From positions 1-51,095 of IMG/VR virus record IMGVR_UViG_3300037484_000032: DNA of 51,095 nt. One strand, 5' to 3'. Positions within the stretch are counted from its first letter, which is position 1; every line of letters begins with the position of its first letter. This document shows positions 2,529 through 51,095 of this stretch, one piece after another. The notes beneath the pieces are model-generated. The model saw only the letters and a program-made list of their open reading frames with translations, had not been told where the DNA came from and made no database searches. Position numbers and translations under genes: made by a program. Origin of the DNA: a virus (taxonomy: Duplodnaviria; Caudoviricetes).

Positions 2529-2803
2529 AGAATTCCCTTATCCGATTCTTCGTAAGCCTCTTCCCTAGTCTTCTGAGAAGGCCAATGAATAGGAATCTCC
2601 ACAATTTCTACATCTACAGGTTTAGGAGACATATAAAGAAGATGCTGATTATCCAAAAAATACTGGAGTTTATGGAAAGGATATACACTAGCCATCCAAT
2701 TAGCAAATTTCTTTAATTCTTTTAATTCATATTCCGCCTTTCGGCGCTTATGAATCTCCAGATTTGCTTCTTGATGAGAAAGCATTACATCTTCTGTATT
2801 CAT
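2525..2803 (-). CDS. Hypothetical protein
   Basis: ORF tightly coupled to both neighbours. Confidence 0.6.
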   Translation of the reverse strand: MNTEDVMLSHQEANLEIHKRRKAEYELKELKKFANWMASVYPFHKLQYFLDNQHLLYMSPKPVDVEIVEIPIHWPSQKTREEAYEESDKGIL

Positions 2804-3045
2804 TTAATTGGCCTTCCTGTAATGAGAATACCATCTTCCTGAAAGTTCATCACATATTCCCAATCAGGATAGGAGACTGCCTTCTCTTTTAGGTATTCCT
2901 CAGCTTTTTGGGAGGCATCTGCTCCCTTGAAAAGAATCTCTGTCCATTCGGGTTTCCCAAAAATAAGATCAAAGTTCTTTTTACCCTCTTCGGTATAGCC
3001 TTTGCTGACCAACCGTGCTCCTGTATGGGGGTTGGTATTAGTCAT
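2800..3045 (-). CDS. Hypothetical protein
   Basis: ORF tightly coupled to both neighbours. Confidence 0.65.
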   Translation of the reverse strand: MTNTNPHTGARLVSKGYTEEGKKNFDLIFGKPEWTEILFKGADASQKAEEYLKEKAVSYPDWEYVMNFQEDGILITGRPIK

Positions 3046-3603: not shown

Positions 3604-3679
3604 TGGAGCGGACTACGAGACTCGAACTCGTGACATTCTGTTTGGAAGACAGATGCTCTACCAACTGAGCTAAGTCCGC
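3604..3679 (-). tRNA. tRNA-Gly (anticodon TCC), CCA encoded
   Basis: Cloverleaf: GCGGACT/AGTCCGC acceptor stem, D-arm GCTC..GAGC, anticodon loop CTTCCAA, TTCGA T-loop, U73 discriminator. Confidence 0.95.
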
Positions 3680-3740: not shown

Positions 3741-3836
3741 TTATTGTGGACAAGTTTGGTATCTATTCTTTTTGTCTGAACAAAGCCAAAAGGAAGTTAG
3801 AGGCTTTATTTCTCCACATACTTTACACTGCCTCAT
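3741..3836 (-). pseudogene. 31-codon ORF resembling the Zn-finger N-terminus of a homing endonuclease (remnant)
   Basis: MRQCKVCGEIKPLTSF...YQTCPQ followed by three consecutive stop codons (TAA TGA TGA). Confidence 0.45.
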
Positions 3837-4539
3837 ACTTAACCTCCTCTATATCAGACATATTTCTACCTACCGCACACTCGCATCTTAAAGGTAAGTC
3901 AAAGGGTTGTTTAAAGACTCGCTCAAAATTCTTGGGCAAATCTCTAAATACTTCGTGGAACAAACGAACTACACGATCTACTTCATAGTCCGGCACATCC
4001 ACAACAATGGAGTCATGGACTGTGTTTACGAGAGAACCCACAATACCAAGAGCATGGAAACGACGGGCGAAAGATACACGAGCAATAGCCATAAGATCAG
4101 CCGCAAATCCTTGGACGATATAGTTCTTGATTGTAGTCTCGGGCCAATCACCCTTCCAATTTCTCTCATATTCGTAAGTCCTTCCAGTATATGGATTAAC
4201 AATACGTCCTGTTGTGGACGCTTCTTGCATCAATGCTATCCACCATCTATCCCATCCTGTGTACTTATCATGAAACTTATCAATGGCATTCTGCCAGTAT
4301 TTCTGAGAAGTACTCACATGAGTGAAGTCTGGGTCAGAAGCATAGGAGAAACATGTACCACCATAGATAAGCCGGAACAAGAATGTCTTAGCTACTAATC
4401 GTGTTGGTAGTCCAAATGCTTCTACGTTTGCTGAGTGGATGTCATAGTTTGCAATTAGTTCTTTGTATGCTACAGGACACTTTGCTAGAAATGTGCCTGC
4501 ATACCATTCAATTGCTTTACCGTCGCAGTTTACAATCAT
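3823..4539 (-). CDS. DNA polymerase family A, C-terminal (palm/fingers) subunit
   Basis: Motif A CDGKAIE, motif B RLVAKTFLFRLIYG, NYIVQGFAAD, motif C TVHDSI. Confidence 0.92.
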   Translation of the reverse strand: MIVNCDGKAIEWYAGTFLAKCPVAYKELIANYDIHSANVEAFGLPTRLVAKTFLFRLIYGGTCFSYASDPDFTHVSTSQKYWQNAIDKFHDKYTGWDRWWIALMQEASTTGRIVNPYTGRTYEYERNWKGDWPETTIKNYIVQGFAADLMAIARVSFARRFHALGIVGSLVNTVHDSIVVDVPDYEVDRVVRLFHEVFRDLPKNFERVFKQPFDLPLRCECAVGRNMSDIEEVKYEAV

Positions 4540-4664
4540 TCATTATCTTTTATTTCAAAATAAACTATTCTTTTACATTCATGATACCAAGTGGGTTGCT
4601 CGAAATATATTTCCCACTCTTTATCTTCTTCATATCTCTTTACCAACCAAGCTAATTTAGGCAT
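4536..4664 (-). CDS. 42-aa ORF between the two polymerase halves
   Basis: MPKLAWLVKRYEEDKEWEIYFEQPTWYHECKRIVYFEIKDNE; overlaps the upstream stop and has an ATGA overlap with the downstream start. Confidence 0.55.
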   Translation of the reverse strand: MPKLAWLVKRYEEDKEWEIYFEQPTWYHECKRIVYFEIKDNE

Positions 4665-5817
4665 ATCTACTTACACAAAAAGTTTTTGCAATTGGTGGAA
4701 AATTTTGCATGTTAGGTTTGCTAGAAGATAGACGACCAGTAATAGCAATACACTGGTTCAGTTGTCCATGCAAAACTTCGTTGTCCCATTCCATTGTTTT
4801 AATAAGTTGTGGGAGTCCGGTAAGATAAGTACCCCGAAGTTTCTCAAGTTCAGAATACTTAGAGACAAGAGTCATAATTTTCCTTGACTCTTTTGTGTGT
4901 TTTAGAGAACGTAGAACATCATCATTCGTAAACCACACGGGAGGAGAACCTATTGGTTTCTTTGCTTCAGTTTTTGCCAGTGGTTCTACTAGGCGAGGCA
5001 TTGTGTATTTCTTCTCAATTATCTTGTAACGTGTCTCCCCAATTTTCTTTCCTGTTTTAAATACTCCCACAGGAATATGGGACTCCACAACAATATCCCC
5101 ACCGTAAAAAATAGCAGAAAGGTGGTCCCCAGAATTAAGATTAAAAGGCACGTTGCCAAGAATAGATACCATTTCTTTATAGAGTGCATCTTGTTCTTTT
5201 TGTATCCCTTCCGCCATTTTAAGGGCATTCTCTACATCAAACAAGATTCCATTGTACTCCATTTCTTCCAGAACAATGAGGTCTTGACAATGTAATTTAA
5301 AAAGATTATATTTACTTGCATGTTCTTTTTCAAATAAACCCCTCTGCTTTAAATAAAGTTGCTCCGTTAGATATAAATCCTGTTCTAGGTACTCTGATAG
5401 GATTTGTTGTGGGATGTCATTTGTATCTATTCCTTTGTCCCAAAAATCATTTTTAATTACATCTATTTTATGACCTAGATTATACCTAACCGAAGCATCT
5501 TCCAGAGAAGGAAACTTTAGTTTTTGATTAGAAAGAACAAACTCCCCTAGTTGTGTACACCAAACCTTTATGGTTGAAAAATCTACCCCTATTTTTTTAA
5601 TCCAATGTAGATCAAACTTTGCATTATGTGCTATAAATAAACAACTAGAAAGAATACTCTGTATTTGCTTTATATCCTCCTTGGTTGGGTAGTAGAATAG
5701 AAACACTTCTTTACTATCTATATCACGAATACCTACAACAACTAATGTATTCCTTCTATCAAAAGGGTTTCCTTTATTAGATGTTGTGCATTCGATGTCG
5801 CAGACTACTCTACGCAT
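4657..5817 (-). CDS. DNA polymerase family A, N-terminal subunit (3'-5' exonuclease + thumb)
   Basis: ExoI CDIECT, ExoII AHNAKFDL, ExoIII YLEQD, TGRLSSSKPNMQN at the C-terminus. Confidence 0.92.
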   Translation of the reverse strand: MRRVVCDIECTTSNKGNPFDRRNTLVVVGIRDIDSKEVFLFYYPTKEDIKQIQSILSSCLFIAHNAKFDLHWIKKIGVDFSTIKVWCTQLGEFVLSNQKLKFPSLEDASVRYNLGHKIDVIKNDFWDKGIDTNDIPQQILSEYLEQDLYLTEQLYLKQRGLFEKEHASKYNLFKLHCQDLIVLEEMEYNGILFDVENALKMAEGIQKEQDALYKEMVSILGNVPFNLNSGDHLSAIFYGGDIVVESHIPVGVFKTGKKIGETRYKIIEKKYTMPRLVEPLAKTEAKKPIGSPPVWFTNDDVLRSLKHTKESRKIMTLVSKYSELEKLRGTYLTGLPQLIKTMEWDNEVLHGQLNQCIAITGRLSSSKPNMQNFPPIAKTFCVSRYA

Positions 5818-6191: not shown

Positions 6192-8351
6192 TTAATTAAT
6201 ATCCTTATATCGTGCAATATCAGGTTGTATGAGCACCTGCATTTTCCCGTGTCGCATCTCTGGAATAGAATCTTCATCGCCTGTCAATTTATTTTTCGAG
6301 ATATGTAAATACCTCATGTACTTCAATCCTTCATCGTGTACTGCACCAATACCCAGAATCCAATCTGCTTCCGCCTGTTTACTTGTATTATGAGTAACGA
6401 TATTTCCTTCAATAATAAACTTATGGTCCCCATCAATCATAATACCTGCATAGTCACCTACTCCCAAAGGGTGCACTTCCAGTCTTGATTTTAATACATT
6501 TTTGTACCCGACATAAGTAGACTTTTTACGTTCTATCCTACATGGAATAGCAGACAAGTCATTTCCTGAAATAGAAGTGTAGTAGTACTTTCCTCTTTGT
6601 TTAAAAGAAGCCATAAGACCACAGGAAAGAGCAAGTTCTTTTAGACCAAGAGCGAGAAGATAATTGGCATTGCTAAAAACATAATACTCATGTTTACGGA
6701 CTACCTTAGTTCCATCAGTATCTAAGAGCCCTGCAATAAGGGCCAGACGTTGTTTAATACTTCCTTTAAAGTATTGTCTTGGTATATGCTTATTTTCAAA
6801 TAAATCCAAGTCTTTAAGTTTATTTAAGAACGGATGCTTTACTCCTTGTCTATACTTCATTCTAGCATGGATAATATGTCCTTTCTCTAGATACTGAGTG
6901 TAGGAGCAGTTCCACTTAGGACACTCTTCTTTTACAGCTTGAACAACCTCTGGGTCAATTGTTGTAATTTCTGCCTTACTCTTACCTCCATCCCCTAACC
7001 AAAGACCCAAAAAGTAAGGATCAATAGGAAGAGATTGTTCAGCCAATTCATGCCCTACTCGATACCCAAAGTCAGAGGCACAATAAGCTGTCACTGGTCT
7101 ATTCACATACTTACCCGCCCCAGTAATAAGAGATAGGATATGTGATTTATTCACTACATAGGTGTCTCCTCCTATCTTGTGGGTAATAGCAAACATTTCC
7201 TCCTGTCCTTGTGCTGTGGCAAGAACTTGTCGAGGGGTAGAGTCTACTCCCATAACCTGTTCTCCAACTTCAATGTTTTCCACTCGTTTCCAAGTACCAT
7301 CATACATAAGTACCTTAGTTGCGGGAGCAAGGCATTTTGCATTCGCTACGTTGTCCATCGTTAGCCATTTCTTGTTCTCACCTGTAACATCTGCCTGACA
7401 AACACCAATCACAGGACAGTACTTCTTAGCCAGTTCCCTAGCCCAGATGTAGATAGCTCCGAGTCTCAAATCTTCCCTATCGTTATCAAAACCTTTAATC
7501 TTGTCAATCTGGTCAAAGATAATCAGGGATGGTTTCAGTTCCTTGCAGAGTCTCTCAATCTCACGCCGATTAATTGTGGCACTGTCTTTGAGTTTAATCT
7601 TGCCATGTGTCTTTTTGATAAATTCCTCATAGCTACGCTTTCGGTCTTCAAACAATCGGTTGTTGGTACAACCAAGACTGGCCTGCATGATACGAACTTT
7701 AACCTTGAGACCACCTTCTTCATTATTGAACCAAAGAATGGGGCCATCCTCTTCCTTGAGTTGCAATGCCATGTAAGTAGCTTCTTCCGCAAGAAAGGTT
7801 GTCTTACCTGTTTCTGGCCTAGCAAATAGGAAACCAAAATCTCCTTTGCGGAGACTCCCTAACGACTGATTCAGAGCCTTCAATCTCCATCGTAATCCAG
7901 GCTTGTGTTTGGTTTCCATGTAGAGTTCTTCAATATCATCAGTGACGAACTCTTCTTGATTCTCTGTGACCGACTCATCCTCAAATTTAGGAAAGAAGTT
8001 AATCAGGTCTAGGAGGGGTTTACGGCCTTCGGATACATCAATTGACAGGAGAGCACAGTCGTGTGCTAAAGAACGCTCTATGGCCTGTTTTACTAGGTCA
8101 GCGAGCATATCTTCACCAATATCTGCTGCGGTGATTTGCTCCAATAGTTCTGTGTGTTCTGGGTGTGCTGTGAGGACTGCAAGACGAAACTCAGGAAAAG
8201 AAAGGTCACGGTTATACTTCCCGTGGAGAGAGTCCAGCACTCCATAGAGTGCAATCAATTCTTTGTCCTCTTTCCTAAGCTTGATAGACTCTCTGTATTT
8301 GGTGTAGTTCTTTACAGAGAGAAGAAATTTAAGAATTATTAGTTCAATCAT
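6192..8351 (-). CDS. DnaB/T7 gp4-like replicative helicase, intein-containing (~403 aa after splicing)
   Basis: Walker A ARPETGKT, NNEE, IIFDQIDK, GVCQA, KQAEAD, SKNK. Confidence 0.92.
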   Translation of the reverse strand: MIELIILKFLLSVKNYTKYRESIKLRKEDKELIALYGVLDSLHGKYNRDLSFPEFRLAVLTAHPEHTELLEQITAADIGEDMLADLVKQAIERSLAHDCALLSIDVSEGRKPLLDLINFFPKFEDESVTENQEEFVTDDIEELYMETKHKPGLRWRLKALNQSLGSLRKGDFGFLFARPETGKTTFLAEEATYMALQLKEEDGPILWFNNEEGGLKVKVRIMQASLGCTNNRLFEDRKRSYEEFIKKTHGKIKLKDSATINRREIERLCKELKPSLIIFDQIDKIKGFDNDREDLRLGAIYIWARELAKKYCPVIGVCQADVTGENKKWLTMDNVANAKCLAPATKVLMYDGTWKRVENIEVGEQVMGVDSTPRQVLATAQGQEEMFAITHKIGGDTYVVNKSHILSLITGAGKYVNRPVTAYCASDFGYRVGHELAEQSLPIDPYFLGLWLGDGGKSKAEITTIDPEVVQAVKEECPKWNCSYTQYLEKGHIIHARMKYRQGVKHPFLNKLKDLDLFENKHIPRQYFKGSIKQRLALIAGLLDTDGTKVVRKHEYYVFSNANYLLALGLKELALSCGLMASFKQRGKYYYTSISGNDLSAIPCRIERKKSTYVGYKNVLKSRLEVHPLGVGDYAGIMIDGDHKFIIEGNIVTHNTSKQAEADWILGIGAVHDEGLKYMRYLHISKNKLTGDEDSIPEMRHGKMQVLIQPDIARYKDIN
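6387..7334 (-). mobile_element. Intein (316 aa) with LAGLIDADG homing endonuclease
   Basis: Starts CLAPATKVLMYDG, block B VNKSH, LGLWLGDG and IAGLLDTDG, ends IVTHN followed by +1 Thr. Confidence 0.95.
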
Positions 8352-16933: not shown

Positions 16934-17173
16934 TTCTTCTCCTTTACCAATGATGTGTTTTGACCAAGGCTTGCAAAACCTCATTGTGTTGTTTCTTGGT
17001 CTGCTTCTTTTTCTCTTGGACTTCAGCCAGCTTAACCTCAGCAGGAGCAACAGGATGACCGACTGTAACCTCTTCAATGTTCAACTGGTTTAACATTTGA
17101 AGTTGAAGGTTGATAATATCTGTCCAATAGTAATTTCCAGGGCTTAATGCTAATGTATAACCACTAAGCCCTT

Positions 17174-18741: not shown

Positions 18742-18996
18742 CTATTTCACCAGATAGAGGGCCGGTTTTGCCGGAACTTCCTTCTGTTCCACAGGAGCCA
18801 CAGCAACCAGCGGTGGCAGCGACTTTGTGATGTGTTCCAGCACTTCTTTGACCACGTTCTTGGTCAGGTGCTTGCCATTCACGAATTGCAAATGACCGAC
18901 CTTGTTGTTCCAGCGCACACGGGTATGGTTCTTCCATCCGTTGCCAGTGAACACATCGTACATTCCGAACGTACCTGCTTTGAGAATCTTGGGCAT
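18742..18996 (-). CDS. Hypothetical protein
   Basis: Strong SD AAGGAGG. Confidence 0.7.
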   Translation of the reverse strand: MPKILKAGTFGMYDVFTGNGWKNHTRVRWNNKVGHLQFVNGKHLTKNVVKEVLEHITKSLPPLVAVAPVEQKEVPAKPALYLVK

Positions 18997-20819: not shown

Positions 20820-21326
20820 GACACACCTTCCTTTCTCTACGGTTGAACAACTGAAAGATATTTGTTAATGTCCTTTAGTTGTCCCCCTTCCGAAGAAGGG
20901 GAATAGTATATAAGTGTTTGGGTTATATGGTTGTAGTGTATAGCTTGCGCTACATGATGGTCTCCATTGGTTAATACCACGTCCCCAGGCTTCTGGTAGA
21001 AATCAATATGACCGACCCTACATTTAATAGATTAATCGGCCTTCCTGATAGTAAGTCTTATAAGCATTCACCCTATTCAAGGCACGGCGTTTTGCCCTAC
21101 GCCTTTTGTTTCTTTCGGCAATCTTTGTCTTTGTCATGGTATCACCTCACAACATTGGGTCAGTCTTTGCACGTTCCAGGAGCATCTTTGTTTCACGCTC
21201 CAGCAAGGCAATCTGAATTTTAACCGGAAGATTCTTTCTCTTTTCCAGGATTACGTTGAACATGATAGCCTCCATTGCTACGTTGATAAATGGAAGGGGG
21301 CTATTGCTAACCCCCTTAGGTTTACC

Positions 21327-21884
21327 TTACGCCGCTGCCGGTGCTTGTTGTGCCGCGATTGCTGCCGCTGCCGCTGCGCCTGCTGCTGCTTTGTGCTTGG
21401 CAAGAAGGGCACTCACCTCTTCCACCACTTCGGGTGAAATGATTTCCACTTCCACGCCTGCCGCCGCCTTTTCCTTGGCCGTTGTCAGGCGATTGACGAT
21501 TGCCTGCAACATGCTCAAGCCGTTGAACTTGAAGACGTGGTGCGTCTGTTCCGTTAGTTCCCAGTAGGGAGTAGCTTCAGCTTCAGTCAACATCGCTTCG
21601 ATTGTCTCCGCGTTAATGTCACGCCGCGCACGGTAGACCAGCTTTCCGGCCTTCATGCCCAACTTCCCGTAGTGACACAACCACTTTTCCACACGGGCGG
21701 CGTCATGCTTCTTGCCCATTGCTTCGAGCAAGCGAACAGCGAAGCCATCATTGCCGTGCGTGTTCACCTGTTCCAGGGCGAACATGCCCGCATTGTGGAT
21801 GTATTGCGCCAGTGCCTCACCGCTTTTCTTGATTGCAACAAGGGTGGAGTTAAAACCTTTTTCATTCTGAATTGCTTTCGCCAT
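21327..21884 (-). CDS. First early protein (hypothetical, Ala-rich C-terminus)
   Basis: 185-aa ORF with GC-rich codons and SD AAAGG/CAGG. Confidence 0.8.
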   Translation of the reverse strand: MAKAIQNEKGFNSTLVAIKKSGEALAQYIHNAGMFALEQVNTHGNDGFAVRLLEAMGKKHDAARVEKWLCHYGKLGMKAGKLVYRARRDINAETIEAMLTEAEATPYWELTEQTHHVFKFNGLSMLQAIVNRLTTAKEKAAAGVEVEIISPEVVEEVSALLAKHKAAAGAAAAAAIAAQQAPAAA

Positions 21885-21943
21885 GATAGTACCTGCCTTT
21901 CTTTTTAGGTTGCGGATAATATATAGGGCTATCCGCTTGCCCC

Positions 21944-21972
21944 AAAAAGACCACTATTGCTAATGGCCTTTT
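21944..21972 (-). terminator. Terminator-like hairpin closing the candidate ncRNA
   Basis: Minus strand AAAAGGCCATTA-GCAA-TAGTGGTCTTTTT; its two G-U pairs form only on the minus strand. Confidence 0.55.
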
Positions 21973-22569
21973 CGTTAGTAGGGGTCTAGTTGCCGTCCGC
22001 TTTTCTGTCGTTGTCACAGTTTTAGCGGTCTAGGTTCCCCTAATCGTTTCCGTCATGGTTATTGGGGCTTTTAAAGTGGGGGTTTACCCCTGAGCCTTGT
22101 GCGTGCTGTATTACAGCGAACGCGCCAGTCGTAGCCGGATACACTTACACGTTGCCTAGTGGTAGAGAGTCTTATTGTCATTGCTCAATACTCCGGTGGT
22201 GTCGCCCTAGCTGTGGCCATTGTTTCAAGCCTTGCCCCCAGTTGCTGTGTTCCATCCAGGTTAGTGGTTACTCACTCACTCCGCTGGACATTGGCTATAT
22301 TTTGGGGGTGTCGCCTTACGGGGCACACCTGTTCGCTTTGTTATGCAGTAGCGTGCTGCCTTCCGAGGATGACCGACTATCTCTAGTCATATCGGGTATA
22401 AGTCTATAGGGCTTATTGTCGTTAGTAGCCCGCGCATGCCTATATGGTACAGTGTTTGAGCATACATATCAGGGAAAGTTCCAGACTGTCCGTGAGTACA
22501 CCCACACAAGGTAGGGTTTCAGATGCTGTAGACCTTCGCCCACTAATCACCGATGTCCTACCTTTGCAC
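21944..22569 (-). ncRNA. Candidate large structured non-coding RNA / leader (~625 nt)
   Basis: No minus-strand ORF >=60 aa; GC-rich; nested stems; GNRA-capped hairpins at 21957, 22181, 22268, 22316, 22380; bounded by a promoter and a terminator-like hairpin. Confidence 0.5.
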
Positions 22570-22579
22570 CCCAATAGAA

Positions 22580-22596
22580 TGCAAGGCCCATGCCAA
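22580..22596 (-). promoter_or_regulatory. sigma54 (RpoN) -24/-12 promoter
   Basis: TTGGCATGGGCCTTGCA = TGGCA-N6-TTGCA, i.e. GG-N10-GC. Confidence 0.7.
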
Positions 22597-22624
22597 TGTG
22601 CTCGGATAAATCCTCCCATCGTTC

Positions 22625-22637
22625 TAATTAACTGATT
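22625..22637 (-). promoter_or_regulatory. IHF site (promoter-proximal)
   Basis: AATCAG-TTAA-TTA matches WATCAR-N4-TTR. Confidence 0.55.
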
Positions 22638-22716
22638 AATAAGGAATAAATCTACAACTATATTAGGAAAGACTAATAGAGTATATTAGAGGATGATTAT
22701 ATATATAGGTAGATAG

Positions 22717-22825
22717 TGCCGTAAAACGTCAGGTTGACTGACAATTTAGGTCACATGCAATGTAAATCATTGATTCTAATAGCCTGGATTGTGACGTTTA
22801 TTGTCACCCATGCACTACTGTGTCA
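22717..22825. promoter_or_regulatory. Cluster of TGAC-N7-GTCA palindromes (putative enhancer-binding-protein sites) with a central IHF site at 22763-22775
   Basis: tgccgtaaaacgtca 22717, tgacaatttaggtca 22739, gtgacgtttattgtcac 22791, degenerate tgcactactgtgtca 22811; AATCAATGATTTA on the minus strand. Confidence 0.55.
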
Positions 22826-23252
22826 TTATCCTATTGATAACTAACAGTTAAATCGCACGGAATGGTAATGAGTACGATACTATTAAATGTGGGGAATGTA
22901 ATTTAGTATTGACACACCCAATAATTAATCAACTAATGATTAATTCCTGTCCGAATGTTCTAATATAATTGAATTCTAAAGCACGATTGCGAAGCAATGC
23001 GTTTGAAGGGGGAAGGGGGGATTGGGGTGTACTTATTGGGTTGCACTACACCCAAATAATTTCTCATAGAAATTCCCAGACTTCGGGAATTTTGACTAGA
23101 AATGTTAGAATATTGACACAATGATTCTGGGGAACGGAGAATTAATTCGAGTACCCCCTTGACAATATTGTGTTCGGGATATGAGACTATGATACATCCC
23201 TCACACAAATAGAGATAAAAAGGAGAAATATAAAATATATTATTATAACTTC

Positions 23253-23281
23253 TTGCGGTTATACTTTATTTATGCTATACT
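23253..23281 (+). promoter_or_regulatory. sigma70-type promoter at the head of the virion arm
   Basis: TTGCGG-N17-TATACT with extended TGn -10 and an AT-rich upstream segment. Confidence 0.55.
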
Positions 23282-23580
23282 ATAAGTATGTTTTGAATTA
23301 AATGAGAAACAAAACATTAATAGGGTTCACAAGAACCCGAACCCAATCTGAAACATAGGGGTTCAACAAAGAACCCCGTAATAAACATCTAAAGAAGTAT
23401 AAATTAATAACATACTTCTAGTAGTACTCAAAGAGGGATAGTCTATTCCTTTCTCTCGAAAGTACTCATTTCTTACCGGAGAATTCTTTCTTGAAAAAAA
23501 GACCTTTTACTGTTTCTGAGGAACGGAGTGAAACGAGTACCTCCTACTCTTCGAGTTTCTTTATAGAGAATCCTTCTCTT

Positions 23581-24111
23581 ATGAAGCAATGGCACTCTGT
23601 TCTGAAGGATGACAGGAATGTGGCTCGTACCACTTCCTTGTTCTTCGAGTCTAAGAGAGAAGCTGACCCACATCTTATTCCTATCTTTACTCTTAAAGAT
23701 GAGGACTACACTACTGGTGGTGTAACTTACATTGCTCTCAAGCCTATCTATTTCTCTTACGACCATATCCCAAACTTTGAATATCAGTTTGCTCTTGATG
23801 TATTTGGTTCTTGGGAAATCTGGACAAAGCTTACACGCTCTTATATTCGTACCGAGTTCCAGTCTTGGCGTGACGAACTAGAAGTAAAGATTAAAGCTAA
23901 CGCTATTCAAGCTATGATTAATGCTTCTAAGGAATCTGATGCTAAAGGTGTTCAGGCTGCTAAGTACCTCGCTGACAAGGGTTACGTCACTGAGAAGAAA
24001 CGTGGGCGTCCCTCTAACGAGGATGTAGAACGCGAACGTAAACTCCAAGCAGAAGTCCGAGACACTCTGGCTGCTGATATGGAACGTCTTGGTCTTAAAG
24101 TAGCTAAATAA
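23581..24111 (+). CDS. Putative terminase small subunit
   Basis: First gene of the virion arm; EYQFA..WRDELEVKI..AAKYLADKGY..KRGRPS; function inferred from position and features. Confidence 0.5.
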   Translation: MKQWHSVLKDDRNVARTTSLFFESKREADPHLIPIFTLKDEDYTTGGVTYIALKPIYFSYDHIPNFEYQFALDVFGSWEIWTKLTRSYIRTEFQSWRDELEVKIKANAIQAMINASKESDAKGVQAAKYLADKGYVTEKKRGRPSNEDVERERKLQAEVRDTLAADMERLGLKVAK

Positions 24112-24176
24112 GAAAATAAACGCTTCTAGGGCCATTATAGAGCTTTCTAGGGGTATAGGAGAATATCATTCCGTAC

Positions 24177-24440
24177 ATGAAAAATGGAAAACGTGATTAC
24201 CAAGCTGAGAAAACTTGGGACCATAAGCATAAAAACGGCCAACGCTTGAAAGATCGTGCAGAACGAAATGCTGCTCGTAAAGAACTTGGTCTTAAGGTTG
24301 GTGACCCCCGACAAGCAGACCATAAGAAAGAACTGGTAAAGGGTGGTAGTAATAGTAAGAAAAATCTTCGGGCTGTCTCTGCCAAGACGAATATGCACAA
24401 AGAAGCAGTACGTAAACAAAACGCAGCAAAACGAAAATAA
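24177..24440 (+). CDS. Small basic HNH endonuclease
   Basis: ADHKKELVKGGSN..NLRAVS..N. Confidence 0.7.
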   Translation: MKNGKRDYQAEKTWDHKHKNGQRLKDRAERNAARKELGLKVGDPRQADHKKELVKGGSNSKKNLRAVSAKTNMHKEAVRKQNAAKRK

Positions 24441-24516
24441 CTTAAGAGTGTTCGATCTAGAACACGATCTCATTTAAAGGAGCGGAACCGAGAGGTGAGC
24501 ACCGGAGGAAATAAAC

Positions 24517-38547: not shown

Positions 38548-41500
38548 ATGTCCATCACAATAGATGATATTCCTGTTGTAAATAAACAAACTCCTGTAAA
38601 AGAGAGTGATATTTATTACGCCTCTAATTTAGCTGGAGGTAGTCCTGTAGAGAACTATCTTAATGCCAAGCAAGAAGTTGCTATGACAGGGGATTCTACA
38701 CTTGTAAATCAAGAGAAGGTTAAATGGGCACAAGAGCAAGCAGACAGAAATCATACCACTGTTTCAGATATGATTTCCGATAATACTCTTCCTATTGAGA
38801 CCCGTCGAAAAGTAATGGAAGCCTATGTACAAGGAGCAATCCCTGTGCAAGACTTGCGCGACAAATTCATGATTAACGCCGCAGTTACCGATGTCTCTCG
38901 TGATGTTGAAGATAGAGAAGCACAAGATGCTACTGCTGATGCTCTCTACCAACGAGACTTGGAGAAATCAAATGCAGCTAAACAACAAGCTATTGAAGAG
39001 GGTGCAATTAAACTTAGTGATATACTGGCTGGAGCACAAAAGTCTGCTGCAACTATTAGCAGTGGACTTGTGCTTTCTATTCCTGCTGGTCTCATTGGGG
39101 TAGCCTCGTTACTCCTTGAACAAGACCCAGATAAAGCAGCCGAACTTGTAAAGATTATTCAAGGTTATGCTTATACACCTAAAGACGAAAATACCAGTGA
39201 TAAATTATCAACGGAGTTGACTCAAAAAATAAGTGAACTCTCTGAGACAATAGATGTCCCTTTTAAATGGATAGGCGACACAGTTCTCACATTGCCTTAT
39301 GCTTATGTTGAGAATGGTGAAGTTAAAACAGTCCCTCTCGGTCCTGAATTTGCTGCTGCTGCTTACACAGCAGGAGAGGCAGTAGGGTATATTGGTGGAT
39401 ATAATATTGCTAAAGCTGTCCTAAAAGGAAAACCTAATGTTCCTACTGGTTCTCCTATGGATACTATTGAGACTGCCTCTAAAGAGCAAGCCTCTAATTT
39501 AACTGCTCGTGCAATGGCGGATGAGTCTGGTCGTATTGCAACTGGTGTTGGTTCTACTAAAGAGCAACTCCTGAATACCTATGTTCTTCCAAAGGTAAAG
39601 GATGAGTTTGGTCCTATTCATCCTGATGCTCGTGAAGCTATCAATGCTATGGATAAACGTCTGTATGCTGTTGCAGCAGAGACTGAACTCAATGCCAATG
39701 TGTATCCTGTATCTCAGATTCTTTCTGAAAGAGAGTTGTATACCAAGATTCTAACTGAACAAGAACGTCCTCATTTGTTGTTATCTTCTTCTATTCTGGA
39801 TATTCCGGCAGAGACTAAACTGTATGGACGCTCTGGTAAGGACTATGAGGCTCTTGTAGACTCCACAGCTACTAAGTTGGAAGGTACTGCTGTGTTTGGT
39901 CGTAATGCTAACTTTGGTTACAAGACTGAGGCTGGTGCAGCCAAGTATATGAAGAAGTTGGAAGAGAGCGTTAAACATCTTCCTGACCCTGGAAAGTTTG
40001 AACTCCTGAAGAGAAACGATCAGTTCTATATCTCTTGGAAGTTTACTCGTACCTATGTTCCTCATGAATCTCTAGCTTTCGGTGACGATGTTCTTTCTGC
40101 TCATCTGTTCTCTAAGAGCATTGATATTACTGACTTTGCTAATGGTACTATTGGTAAGCACATATTCCCTGCGTACATGCGTATGAAGGAAGAGATTCCT
40201 ACTACTGGTGCCTCTGCTGCCCGTGAAGAATCTCGTGTTGAATCTACCTTCCTTCGTGAAGCACGTGATACCTTTATGAAGACCCAACATCCTAAAGAGT
40301 TGGAATCTACTCTTCGTATGGGTGAAGAACAAGGAAAGAGTTTTACTGCTGAAGATATTCAAATGCAGCATCCTCATCTCACTAAAGTTGAGACTGATAA
40401 GATTCATGGTGAATATGTAGCATATCGTCGGATTGTTGACCATCTGTATAATATGACGGATAGACAATTCCGTAAAAATCTTGTTGACAAAAACATGAAA
40501 ACCCTGTATAATAATAAGGGTGAGTTCGTTGGACATGCTACAGAACCTCTTAAAGAAATTCCTGATGGCGTAACGCATGTATACGACTTGGATTCTAAAT
40601 CTGTAGTTAAGATTAATAAGGCCCTTCCTGTAATTCAAATGAACTCTCCTATTCGTGTAGGAGACCATATTGTTAATTACGCACACATGCCCTCTACTTA
40701 TCAACTAGGTCCTGTCCGTGCAGGTGCATTGACAAAGATTCCTGGTTACATTCCTCGTTCTTATAAGGAATGGTTTGTAGTAGATAGAGTTCCTAATGCT
40801 CTGTGGGTTGATGGTAAGAAGATTGCTACTGACCAATTGCGTAACTACAAACAAGCTGTGGCTATGGCAGGTACAAAAGCCGAACTTGATACTTTGGTTA
40901 CTAGGCTTCAGAAAGAGAAACCTGACTATAAGTATGAGGCACGTAAAGAAGAAAAGGACATCAATGATAAAATCATGCACGATAGCGAAGTATACGATAC
41001 TTATTTGAAGCAGATTCACCAGCGTGGTGACCGACTGCCTTCTCTGAATCGTCCTGCTGAAGTAGAAGACGTGCTTGTTGCTTTGACTAAAACTATTCGT
41101 AGTGTCTCTAAAATGGCTGCATGGGATGACTTGAATAGGGTTCGTAGAGATAATTTTGTAAAGGCTTATGGTGATTTTACTGACCATAAATTCCCTCAAC
41201 AAATAAATGAGATTCGTCCTAAGAAACACATGACTCCCAAAGAAGAACGTGACTTCTTGGCTGCTCAAAGTGTGTATGCACAAATGGAACGTGAGCAAAT
41301 CTCTTCTACTCAATCTGATATTGTATGGCGCAATGGTTGGAATAAAGTCGCCGATGTAGTAGAAACTAAAATGGATGTAGACGCTCACATTCTCCGTGAA
41401 TGGGGTGAGAAAGGATTTATTCCTGCTCGTACTATTAAAGCTTTTGGTTCAAATCTTTTCCTGTACTGGAGACCTATGCGTATGTGGGTGATTCAACCCC

Positions 41501-49860: not shown

Positions 49861-50594
49861 TAGTTGATATTTACAAAGGTGTTTGTTTGTTCTGCTTTCT
49901 TTGCTCGGAACCAGTTTCCACATCCTTTACATTGGAACCTTTGGTACTTACCGGCATGTGTAAAAGCAAAACCACGCTTGGTATAATGGTTGCCACCGCA
50001 ATTAGGACAAACGAGACCACCTTCAGTATAAAGACCGTGGTTTGCATGATTTTTAATCCAAGGTTTGAGTTGAGTGTAGACACCCTCAAGAATCATAACA
50101 TCATTGACATTGTATTCTTCCATTTTAAATTGGGATTCATTGTCCCCGTTCATACAACCAACCCACAGTTCAAAAGAAGTCTCATGTTTCTTACCAACTC
50201 CGAGTTGTTGAGCAACGTAATCCAACTTGTTGCTAACGAACTTGAAGACCTTCTTGACTGTTAGATAAAGGTCAATCTGTTTAGCCGGAGAAGGAGGAGG
50301 GAAACCATTAATGAGAAACTCTTTGTTTAGAGTAGGAATGTCAAAACGATTTCCATTATAATGAATGATAGCGTCAGCTTCATCCATCATAGAATGGATA
50401 CCTTCTAGCATCTTTGCTGTGCCAGAATTCCATACACTGTCAAAGACAATTTTATCCTCCCCATACCATTTAGCAGAGTAACACATTACATAACCACTCT
50501 CAAGCAACCGAGCAAGTGGAATGTTCTCTTTGAAAATACCCCAAACATACGCAGTGTTCGGAGCCGTCTCAATATCTAAAAGAAGTATTTTCAT
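49860..50594 (-). CDS. DEDD 3'-5' exonuclease with Zn ribbon, allele B
   Basis: LDIET, HYNGNRFD, YNVNDV, CPNC..CKGC. Confidence 0.88.
   Translation of the reverse strand: MKILLLDIETAPNTAYVWGIFKENIPLARLLESGYVMCYSAKWYGEDKIVFDSVWNSGTAKMLEGIHSMMDEADAIIHYNGNRFDIPTLNKEFLINGFPPPSPAKQIDLYLTVKKVFKFVSNKLDYVAQQLGVGKKHETSFELWVGCMNGDNESQFKMEEYNVNDVMILEGVYTQLKPWIKNHANHGLYTEGGLVCPNCGGNHYTKRGFAFTHAGKYQRFQCKGCGNWFRAKKAEQTNTFVNIN
49942..50068. repeat. Second copy of the 127-bp repeat at 1-127
   Basis: Exact identity. Confidence 0.95.
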
Positions 50595-50905: not shown

Positions 50906-51095
50906 TTAAGCCATCCTTTCGGTAACCCCTTGCGGAAGTCACACCATTCAATATCATTCTTATCACACCAATCAGCATATGTAGTCTTAGAGGACTTGCT
51001 AATACGAACTGTAGAGTTCTGGAAAATCATTCGGATTGTTACATCTGGATTGTGTTTCCGAACCAGAAGCATCTTCTTTCGATCTGCGGAAGAGA
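50902..51095 (-). CDS. Endonuclease I allele B, C-terminal part (truncated by window end)
   Basis: Manual translation DRKKMLLVRKHNPDVTIRMIFQNS...KTTYADWCDKNDIEW, collinear with 1403-1810. Confidence 0.85.
   Translation of the reverse strand, partial: SSADRKKMLLVRKHNPDVTIRMIFQNSTVRISKSSKTTYADWCDKNDIEWCDFRKGLPKGWLK

Follow-up and report, generated by a model that had tools for sequence, protein, structure and literature searches.

Introduction

The window analysed here is the whole stretch of 51,095 nucleotides (nt) that makes up the complete 51-kb IMG/VR virus record IMGVR_UViG_3300037484_000032, from an uncultured sediment phage. Its plus strand carries, between ~24.5 and 46 kb, podovirus-type structural genes, including a large terminase, a portal-like protein (named head-tail adaptor in PHROGs), a major head protein, tail genes and an internal virion protein, and its minus strand carries, from ~22 kb downwards, replication genes together with amidoligase and glutamine-amidotransferase genes. 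At the head of this minus-strand operon, which runs for ~22 kb on one strand, a leader lies between an AT-rich non-coding stretch and a gene for a protein of 185 amino acids (aa; 21884-21327), referred to below as the first early gene. Searches for a T7-type RNA polymerase gene (PF00940; run without a positive control) and for genes encoding a sigma70-family factor, sigma54 or a sigma54 activator found none in the phage, which, with no RNA polymerase or sigma gene of its own found, presumably relies on the host RNA polymerase. Here, we will describe the leader, in which a sequence-only reading had placed a structured non-coding RNA (21944-22569) as the first early transcript, and then consider how such an RNA might act. 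The leader RNA measures ~480 to 690 bases, with a conserved core of ~470 nt (22377-21907), and the presence of a conserved, structured non-coding RNA domain on the minus strand is very likely real.

The elements of the leader are given below in the order of transcription; handles of the type L009 denote related loci.

22378-22569, minus strand: variable 5' domain, with a AAGGTAGG/CCTACCTT stem and a GAGA hairpin; it folds in the window
22369-22377, minus strand: the word GUCGGUCAU, at the 5' edge of the conserved core
22334-22359, minus strand: PK1, a compact H-type pseudoknot (stem S1 GCAG/CUGC, loop L1 CA, stem S2 CGCU/AGCG, junction A, loop L3 AUAACAA)
22307-22329, minus strand: H2, a predicted hairpin with a conserved CC-GUAA-GG cap
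22253-22290, minus strand: H3, composed of an outer stem, YGG, an inner hairpin, AAC and the return of the outer stem; found in 10 lineages
22205-22210, minus strand: CUAGGG, an invariant word that all 13 lineages carry between H3 and H6
22105-22117, minus strand: H6, a hairpin with a RUAAUAC loop (GCUG-UAAUA-CAGC), whose stems differ between lineages
21979-22042, minus strand: H8, a long hairpin with conserved internal loops
21944-21973, minus strand: T, a covarying terminator-like hairpin of 12-13 pairs with a GCAA loop, followed by five U
21907-21943, minus strand: PK2, composed of GGGGCAAG, a stem of 6 base pairs (bp), a GCCCUAU-rich loop, the return of the stem and CAACCU; found in nine lineages
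21327-21901, minus strand: ribosome site (21901-21892) and first early gene (ATG at 21884, 185 aa, phrog_1448)

A non-coding stretch that folds on one strand

The stretch 21944-22569 holds no minus-strand open reading frame (ORF) of at least 60 aa, as had been claimed for it; the largest measure 59, 51, 40, 36 and 34 aa, and the 59-aa ORF (22440-22619) starts upstream of the sigma54-type promoter described below. Each minus-strand frame contains 12-16 stops, and reading any single stop codon as sense yields no more than 93 codons. On the plus strand, a TTG-start ORF of 115 aa spans 22062-22409. None of the 11 relatives listed shares an ORF in the gap before the gene, which measures roughly 0.7-2 kb, and L007, a relative that is 96% identical, has no antisense ORF of at least 50 aa across its copy of the leader.

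The composition and folding of the stretch also bear out the sequence-only reading, which had remarked on its high GC content and on pairs that form only on the minus strand. The GC fraction is 0.45-0.53 in segments centred at ~21900-22500, as against 0.29-0.415 in those centred at ~22600-23500. When the folding energy of 21944-22569 is compared with that of shuffled sequences (20 shuffles per strand), z is -2.80 for the minus strand and +0.11 for the plus strand. For the core (22380-21900, 481 nt), z reaches -3.09 on the minus strand, where none of 150 shuffles folds to as low an energy, as against -0.38 on the plus strand, where 54 of 150 do. The strand-specific G-U pairing predicted for the 3' hairpin is likewise found, since a U-G pair within CAUUAG/CUAGUG is kept in the seven canonical T hairpins, including that of the window, and the long nested stem that had been placed at ~21978-22043 is real, lying at 21979-22042 (H8). 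Four of the five GNRA caps that had been counted sit in hairpins (GCAA 21957, GUAA 22316, GUAA 22268 and GAGA 22380); the fifth, GCAA at 22181, is part of an 8-nt loop in the minimum-free-energy (MFE) structure and is not a GNRA cap.

Where the earlier reading has to be redrawn is in the limits of the unit. The AAGGTAGG/CCTACCTT stem said to close a 5' domain is present and paired in the MFE structure, but the domain is not conserved in relatives: the 5' third of the proposed RNA (22569-22378, ~190 nt) differs between them, and its sequence is not retained in L009, L075, L014 or L003. In the window, L009 and L075, PK1 follows the promoter at a spacing of 233-239 nt. At the other end, the terminator-like hairpin that had been taken as the end of the unit is present and conserved (T), but the conserved part does not stop at 21944 and continues for 37 nt beyond it, to 21907.

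Relatives of the leader

Relatives were collected through the product of the first early gene, for which a large protein collection holds 35 homologues. A profile built from 33 aligned homologues was scanned through three collections and yielded four viral loci, nine metagenome loci, two of which duplicate viral ones, and no locus in GTDB genomes; a scan with the single protein added one further, distant locus. Among GenBank phages, MW202697.1 (L075) is the one found. Sequence upstream of the gene is available for 13 lineages, all metagenomic (the window, L002-L007, L009, L012-L015 and L075), of which three (L007, L013 and L015) are truncated on the 5' side; for L011, upstream sequence is lacking. 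Two pattern scans added no new lineage: the promoter pattern found three contigs in IMG/VR, all already among the relatives, and the PK2 pattern found 57 stretches, 56 of them apparent chance matches and one on the contig of L003.

The long leaders of RSB3 and VAC_51, which are distant protein relatives, have sigma70-type promoter words and none of the motifs described here, and the leader of LUZ24 is also without them; LUZ24 gp2 shows no detectable relationship to the first early gene. Candidate hosts of the phage would be Gram-negative bacteria, with Burkholderiales as a guess from the distant relatives. As an observation in its own right, a leader of 360-650 nt without an annotated gene sits between early sigma70-type promoter words and the first genes in Ralstonia phage RSB3 (L076, 1-1600) and in LUZ24 (L078, 656-1020), its sequence unrelated to the RNA of the window. 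In MW202697.1 (L075, 2674-3275; 35960-36561 of the record), four coding sequences (CDS) of 35-62 aa are annotated as 'hypothetical protein' over the homologous leader. These are probably false gene calls, which is of practical relevance.

Helices that change in step

Pairwise BLAST comparisons of the leaders show islands of conservation, and in a MAFFT alignment stems change in step. Compensatory changes among relatives, which the sequence-only reading had wanted examined, lend support to PK1, H3, H8, T and PK2, and more weakly to H6.

The most compact case is PK1. Across nine sequences, 94.4% of its 72 cells are paired, and all eight pairs are changed on both sides somewhere in the set; none of 500 shuffles reaches its covariation score, and controls in which the arms are slid pair at 17-40%. 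The pattern occurs once in the window, where 0.055 occurrences are expected. In one of the nine sequences, L012, S1 measures 5 bp and is shifted by one base in register. Variants with a 3-bp S1, seen by eye, are found in L005 and L006, one of them with a different S2 (UACU/AGUA), and in L014 a plain hairpin followed by UUAACAA stands in PK1's place.

For H3, the outer stem is 88% paired over 10 lineages, five of five positions show double changes, and none of 1000 shuffles of the arms pairs as well. The inner stem changes in step too (AGUGA/UCACU, as against GGUAC/GUACC in L006). The MAFFT alignment of H3 is inconsistent with the structure and was left out of the counting. H6 takes the stems GCUG/CAGC, GUAUG/CAUAC, AUGGG/CCCAU and CGUG/CACG in different lineages; in a fixed register it is 66.7% paired, and two of 1000 arm shuffles score as high. 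H8 has the same shape in L009, with six pairs changed on both sides. The H2 sequence CCGUAAGG of the window recurs in L007, L009 and L003; in L013 it reads UCGUAAGG.

The 3' elements follow the same pattern. The canonical T hairpins number seven (in the window, L007, L009, L003, L013, L014 and L075), and each forms 12 of 12 pairs, with changes in step, a percentage that is biased upwards because the arms were picked as the best-pairing ones. L009 shows double changes in T. Across the canonical set, the U-G pair is conserved, the loop measures 6-90 nt and a run of U follows the hairpin; in the window, this run pairs with an upstream run of A. The PK2 stem is 97.9% paired, with double changes at six of six positions and none of 1000 arm shuffles as high. 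A pseudoknot between GGGGC and GCCCU within PK2 is possible; both words are invariant, so that covariation cannot speak to the knot.

A consensus fold computed with RNAalifold for the window, L007 and L009 contains 105 pairs, 17 of them with double changes, and its long-range pairs are without support. Recent change can be followed between the window and L007, which differ at 17 positions in ~478 nt: four of these form two complete compensatory exchanges in PK1, another replaces an A-U pair of H3 by G-U, and stretches of 155 and 151 nt are unchanged. The identity to L007 is 96.3% for the RNA, as against 94.2% for leader and gene together. In a contig from a soil run (run X5), 48 differences are spread over 21300-22222, and of those listed, two lie within the RNA. 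The same variant positions recur in contigs from further sediment and soil runs, with few additional ones in the RNA among the differences listed.

The predicted promoter region and its surroundings

Upstream of the leader, three kinds of motif are found:

22580-22595, minus strand: sigma54-type promoter TGGCATG-N4-TTGCA (-24 GG, -12 GC; consensus TGGCACG-N4-TTGCW)
22696-22725, minus strand: sigma70-like match (TTTACG, 18 nt, TATAAT), 10 of 12 positions to consensus, ~100 nt upstream of the sigma54-type motif
22727-22806, minus strand: three palindromes, TGAC-N7-GTCA (22806-22792 and 22753-22739) and GTCA-N7-TGAC (22742-22728), 130-210 nt upstream of the sigma54-type motif

A sigma54 promoter just upstream of the RNA was part of the sequence-only reading, and the motif (22595-22580) indeed predicts a start near 22569. 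Its strict form (TGGYAYG-N4-TYGCW) has a single match in the window when both strands are scanned. In six of nine relatives' loci (L003, L004, L005, L009, L012 and L014) it occurs once on the strand of the gene, 697-1207 nt before it, and L014 has a second strict match on the opposite strand, ~1 kb past the end of the gene. L006 and L002 have no strict word, and L075 has a looser one with a single departure, 669 nt before the gene. Unrelated viral loci, 939 kb searched on both strands, contain no strict word, and the promoter positions that vary among relatives are exactly those of the N4 spacer. A sigma54-like promoter has also been reported for the lytic Pseudomonas phage YuA (PMC10914365).

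Palindromes of the same kind lie at about -120 to -210 in L003, L009 and L014, that is, in three of the seven relatives shown besides the window. They may serve a host activator as enhancer sites, or else be operators at which a phage regulator binds, overlapping the second promoter. This second, sigma70-like promoter is put forward as a consensus match, with a -10 block (CTATATAATCA) common to the window, L003, L004 and L005 among eight loci compared. The word at the 5' edge of the core belongs to a further motif, GTCGGTCAY, of which the window has six copies where 0.17 are expected, all on the minus strand and some inside genes (7966-7974, 17055-17063, 18892-18900, 21008-21016, 22369-22377 and 41027-41035). 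In relatives, it occurs just upstream of the sigma54-type motif or in or beside leaders, and it may serve as a promoter element, processing site or primase site.

There is reason to doubt the proposal that this leader is the phage's first early transcript. On the minus strand further upstream (23323-24473), three small ORFs (23473-24473) are followed by two tandem terminator-like hairpins (23323-23377), so that a short transcription unit may precede the leader, whose RNA would then not be strictly the first minus-strand transcript. The AT-rich non-coding stretch in between holds a block of 65 nt (23013-23077, minus strand) that is 88% identical to L003 and is overlapped by a plus-strand terminator-like hairpin (23036-23055).

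The first early gene and the end of the leader

The first early gene encodes a protein that matches no Pfam family and, among PHROGs, matches phrog_1448 alone, for which no function is given. Its AlphaFold model has a pLDDT of 89.5; the PDB contains no fold match at E <= 0.001 and no sequence match, and in BFVD 19 uncharacterised phage proteins match at E <= 0.001. No promoter-like site is predicted between T and the ATG. A conserved anti-terminator competing with T was considered and rejected, as no consistent partner for T's 5' arm is found in seven sequences: in their MFE structures, 0-8 of its 11 nt are paired, in a different place each time. With no consistent earlier partner for its 5' arm, T should form by default. 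An RNA-labelled sequencing run (X8), which contains a small share of the sequence words, gives only diverged contigs of 48-151 nt that cover gene and leader, and is uninformative either way.

Proposed role of the leader RNA

We propose, with middling confidence and by argument from sequence, that the leader gives rise to a new structured RNA that would be ended at T and would act through its own fold, with read-through feeding the early genes. Transcription would start near 22569 at the conserved sigma54-type promoter and perhaps also at the sigma70-like promoter ~120 nt further upstream, both starts being predicted from motifs. The transcript would fold into a variable 5' part and a core with PK1, H2, H3, CUAGGG, H6, H8, T and PK2, a fold that is backed by covariation for the helices named above. 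T would form by default and halt part of the polymerases; release at this point would leave a stable folded RNA of ~625 nt with conservation over its last ~430 nt, and polymerases that read through would produce the mRNA of the first early gene and of the operon behind it. PK2, which lies against the ribosome site of the first early gene, may act as a translation gate. The folded core would bind a host or phage factor early in infection, acting by itself as an RNA. In relatives, the core is retained where T, PK2 or PK1 is missing, and its spacing to promoter and gene varies, which argues that its main role is independent of the neighbouring ribosome site, and binding of a factor by the folded core is more likely than simple control of that adjacent site. 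A bolder version, in which the RNA would found a new class of large, tertiary-folded phage RNAs and act in trans as a discrete early, sigma54-controlled molecule (a decoy, scaffold, anti-defence RNA or ribozyme), appears rather doubtful.

Several observations weigh against the proposal of a single leader-derived RNA. Part of them concern the material: the comparison comprises 13 lineages, three of them cut, the counts for H3, H6, T and PK2 come from our own anchor-based extraction of the arms, and RNAalifold run on a plain MAFFT alignment of six sequences recovers the S1 stem of PK1 and nothing else. No long-range or tertiary helix is supported in this fold or in that of three sequences. A scan for consensus terminators does not list T, and no RNA run is among the sequencing runs listed as carrying the leader sequence. 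A sigma54 promoter requires an activator, and none (PF00158) is found in the phage or in the records of five relatives. The other observations concern the arrangement of the leader, whose core need not always come first on its transcript. In L003, three short ORFs with ribosome sites lie between promoter and core (about 2700-3010), two of them encoding hydrophobic peptides of ~27-32 aa, and in L004 and L005 a small gene, whose changes fall mostly in third codon positions, lies between core and first early gene. L004, L005 and L006 keep the core and are without T and PK2. The loss of T and PK2 and the ORFs of L003 are as compatible with a mosaic of separate elements as with a single RNA.

Such a mosaic is one of two rivals that have to be weighed. 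Here, there would not be one RNA; small cis elements working independently of each other (such as stabilisers of the 5' end or barriers to nucleases, an attenuator and an operator of translation) would stand in a row and would have been shuffled between phages together with small-gene cassettes. The pattern of loss and the ORFs of L003 just described speak for it, as do the clean deletion of PK1 from L004, whose close relative L005 has it, the direct abutment of PK1 on CUAGGG in L012 and the want of a supported long-range helix, and a pseudoknot operator before a phage gene has a precedent in T4 gene 32 (PMC10690425). We nevertheless regard it as unlikely. Wherever H3, CUAGGG and H6 occur together, their order is unchanged, the core of 481 nt as a whole, and not single hairpins alone, is more stable than its shuffled counterparts, and the conserved unpaired words and the GNRA loop suggest tertiary contacts.

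An equally improbable reading, and a serious rival all the same, takes the leader to act in cis alone: the RNA fold, or a word within it such as UAACAA, would load onto or modify the host polymerase so that T, later terminators and Rho are ignored across the ~22-kb operon. The put sites of HK022, the nut sites of lambda and the leaders of rrn operons are cis RNAs that let polymerase ignore terminators in this manner. In keeping with a put- or nut-like role, the element heads a long one-strand operon and is followed directly by a terminator-like hairpin, differing positions within the leader are tolerated, and no PF00940 (with the limit of that search given above), sigma70-family or sigma54 gene was found in the phage. 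Set against this, no put or other antiterminator family is matched in Rfam, and a core of ~470 nt with several conserved loops far exceeds known antiterminator RNAs in size. A boxA-type antitermination word was sought and set aside as no better than background: the best boxA-like word in the 13 leaders matches at 8-10 of 12 positions, and controls of 900 nt commonly reach 8, with 812 of 982 at 8 or above.

It is highly improbable that a DNA-level function, such as that of a replication origin, packaging site or protein-binding array, is what is conserved, and not an RNA. The stretch does adjoin an AT-rich non-coding region with palindromes, and GTCGGTCAY is over-represented on one strand of the genome, but its stems change sequence and keep pairing, as binding sites would not, the excess stability is confined to the minus strand, the conserved G-U pair would be an A-C mismatch on the opposite strand, and both of the interleaved helices of PK1 co-vary. 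A decayed or mis-read coding region, or one encoding small peptides, for which the four CDS of MW202697.1 and the 115-aa plus-strand ORF might be cited, is scarcely credible, as relatives have no ORF in common, L007 does not retain the 115-aa ORF, no single stop-codon reassignment opens the region and substitutions in stems are compensatory.

Relation to known RNAs

In agreement with the novelty that had been suggested, no Rfam 15 family is found in the leader of the window or in the 13 related loci. The one match at gathering threshold in the whole window is a tRNA (3607-3679), 21700-23300 gives three chance-level matches (16-18 bits, E 1.9-4), and the 13 related loci give tRNAs and a weak antisense match on tRNAs and nothing further. 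Known families that were considered (GOLLD, ROOL, OLE, HEARO, raiA, 6S, tmRNA, RNase P, group I and II introns and riboswitches) are rejected, as none has an Rfam 15 match at gathering threshold.

GOLLD, ROOL and OLE are large, ornate RNAs of bacteria and phages whose function is poorly understood. They resemble the RNA of the window in measuring several hundred nt, in their many hairpins, pseudoknots and conserved loops and in being partly phage-borne. In contrast to them, the RNA of the window leads a protein gene and stands behind a sigma54-type promoter, there is no sequence or structure match, and a single compact fold is hypothetical for it. The put and nut sites share its position after an early promoter and before the first gene and are followed by a terminator, for which T is the candidate here, in phages that use the host polymerase, as this one presumably does; unlike them, the leader is much larger and has neither an Rfam match nor a boxA word above chance. 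The build of PK1 (4 + 4 bp, a 2-nt L1, a 1-nt junction and a 7-nt A-rich L3) is in general like that of luteovirus frameshift knots and preQ1-I aptamers. As PK1 lies in a non-coding RNA, a frameshifting role does not apply, and neither a preQ1 nor any other riboswitch model matches the leader even at E up to 10.

Closer in setting are the non-coding RNAs of Pseudomonas phages that derive from 5' untranslated regions (5'UTRs) through early termination, measure ~90-210 nt and were found experimentally (PMC10914365). Both kinds are structured and conserved among relatives, and the RNA of the window would likewise start at an early promoter and end at a terminator before the first gene; unlike them, it is 3-6 times longer and is known from sequence alone, and for theirs no covariation model is reported. 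In the leader of T4 gene 32, a pseudoknot acts as a translational operator (cited in PMC10690425), and PK2 is similarly placed, in front of a conserved early gene and abutting its ribosome site. In contrast to gene 32, the knot helix of PK2 is invariant and a candidate only, and the downstream protein belongs to no known nucleic-acid-binding family. No description of this sigma54-driven leader element was found in the literature searched; Fremin et al. (2023) predicted ~10,000 short viral RNA motifs from IMG/VR (PMC10690425), and their supplements may hold fragments of it. The leader RNA would belong to an uncatalogued RNA family within a known general kind.

Few large RNAs have a complex fold that is conserved, and new biochemistry has tended to come to light with each family added. 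In the present case, several helices have unusually clean compensatory evidence, two of them forming one pseudoknot. The head of an early operon is the usual seat of host-takeover and anti-defence functions, and it is at this place that the RNA sits. With a sigma54-type promoter, palindromes and no phage activator found, early transcription would hinge on a signalling protein of the host, as is uncommon.

Further features of the genome

A few observations fall outside the leader. On the minus strand, the DNA polymerase is split into two ORFs (3823-4539 and 4657-5817) separated by a gap of ~117 nt, and the tRNA gene lies just downstream of them. Also on the minus strand, a DnaB-like helicase ORF of 719 aa (6192-8351) has a second half that matches PHROGs of terminase large subunit and primase and may be an inserted or fused domain. 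Diverged direct repeats are found at the ends of the record (1-186 and 49942-50127, 91%; 1441-1589 and 50937-51085, 74%), which fits an earlier reader's idea that two alleles were joined at an assembly overlap.

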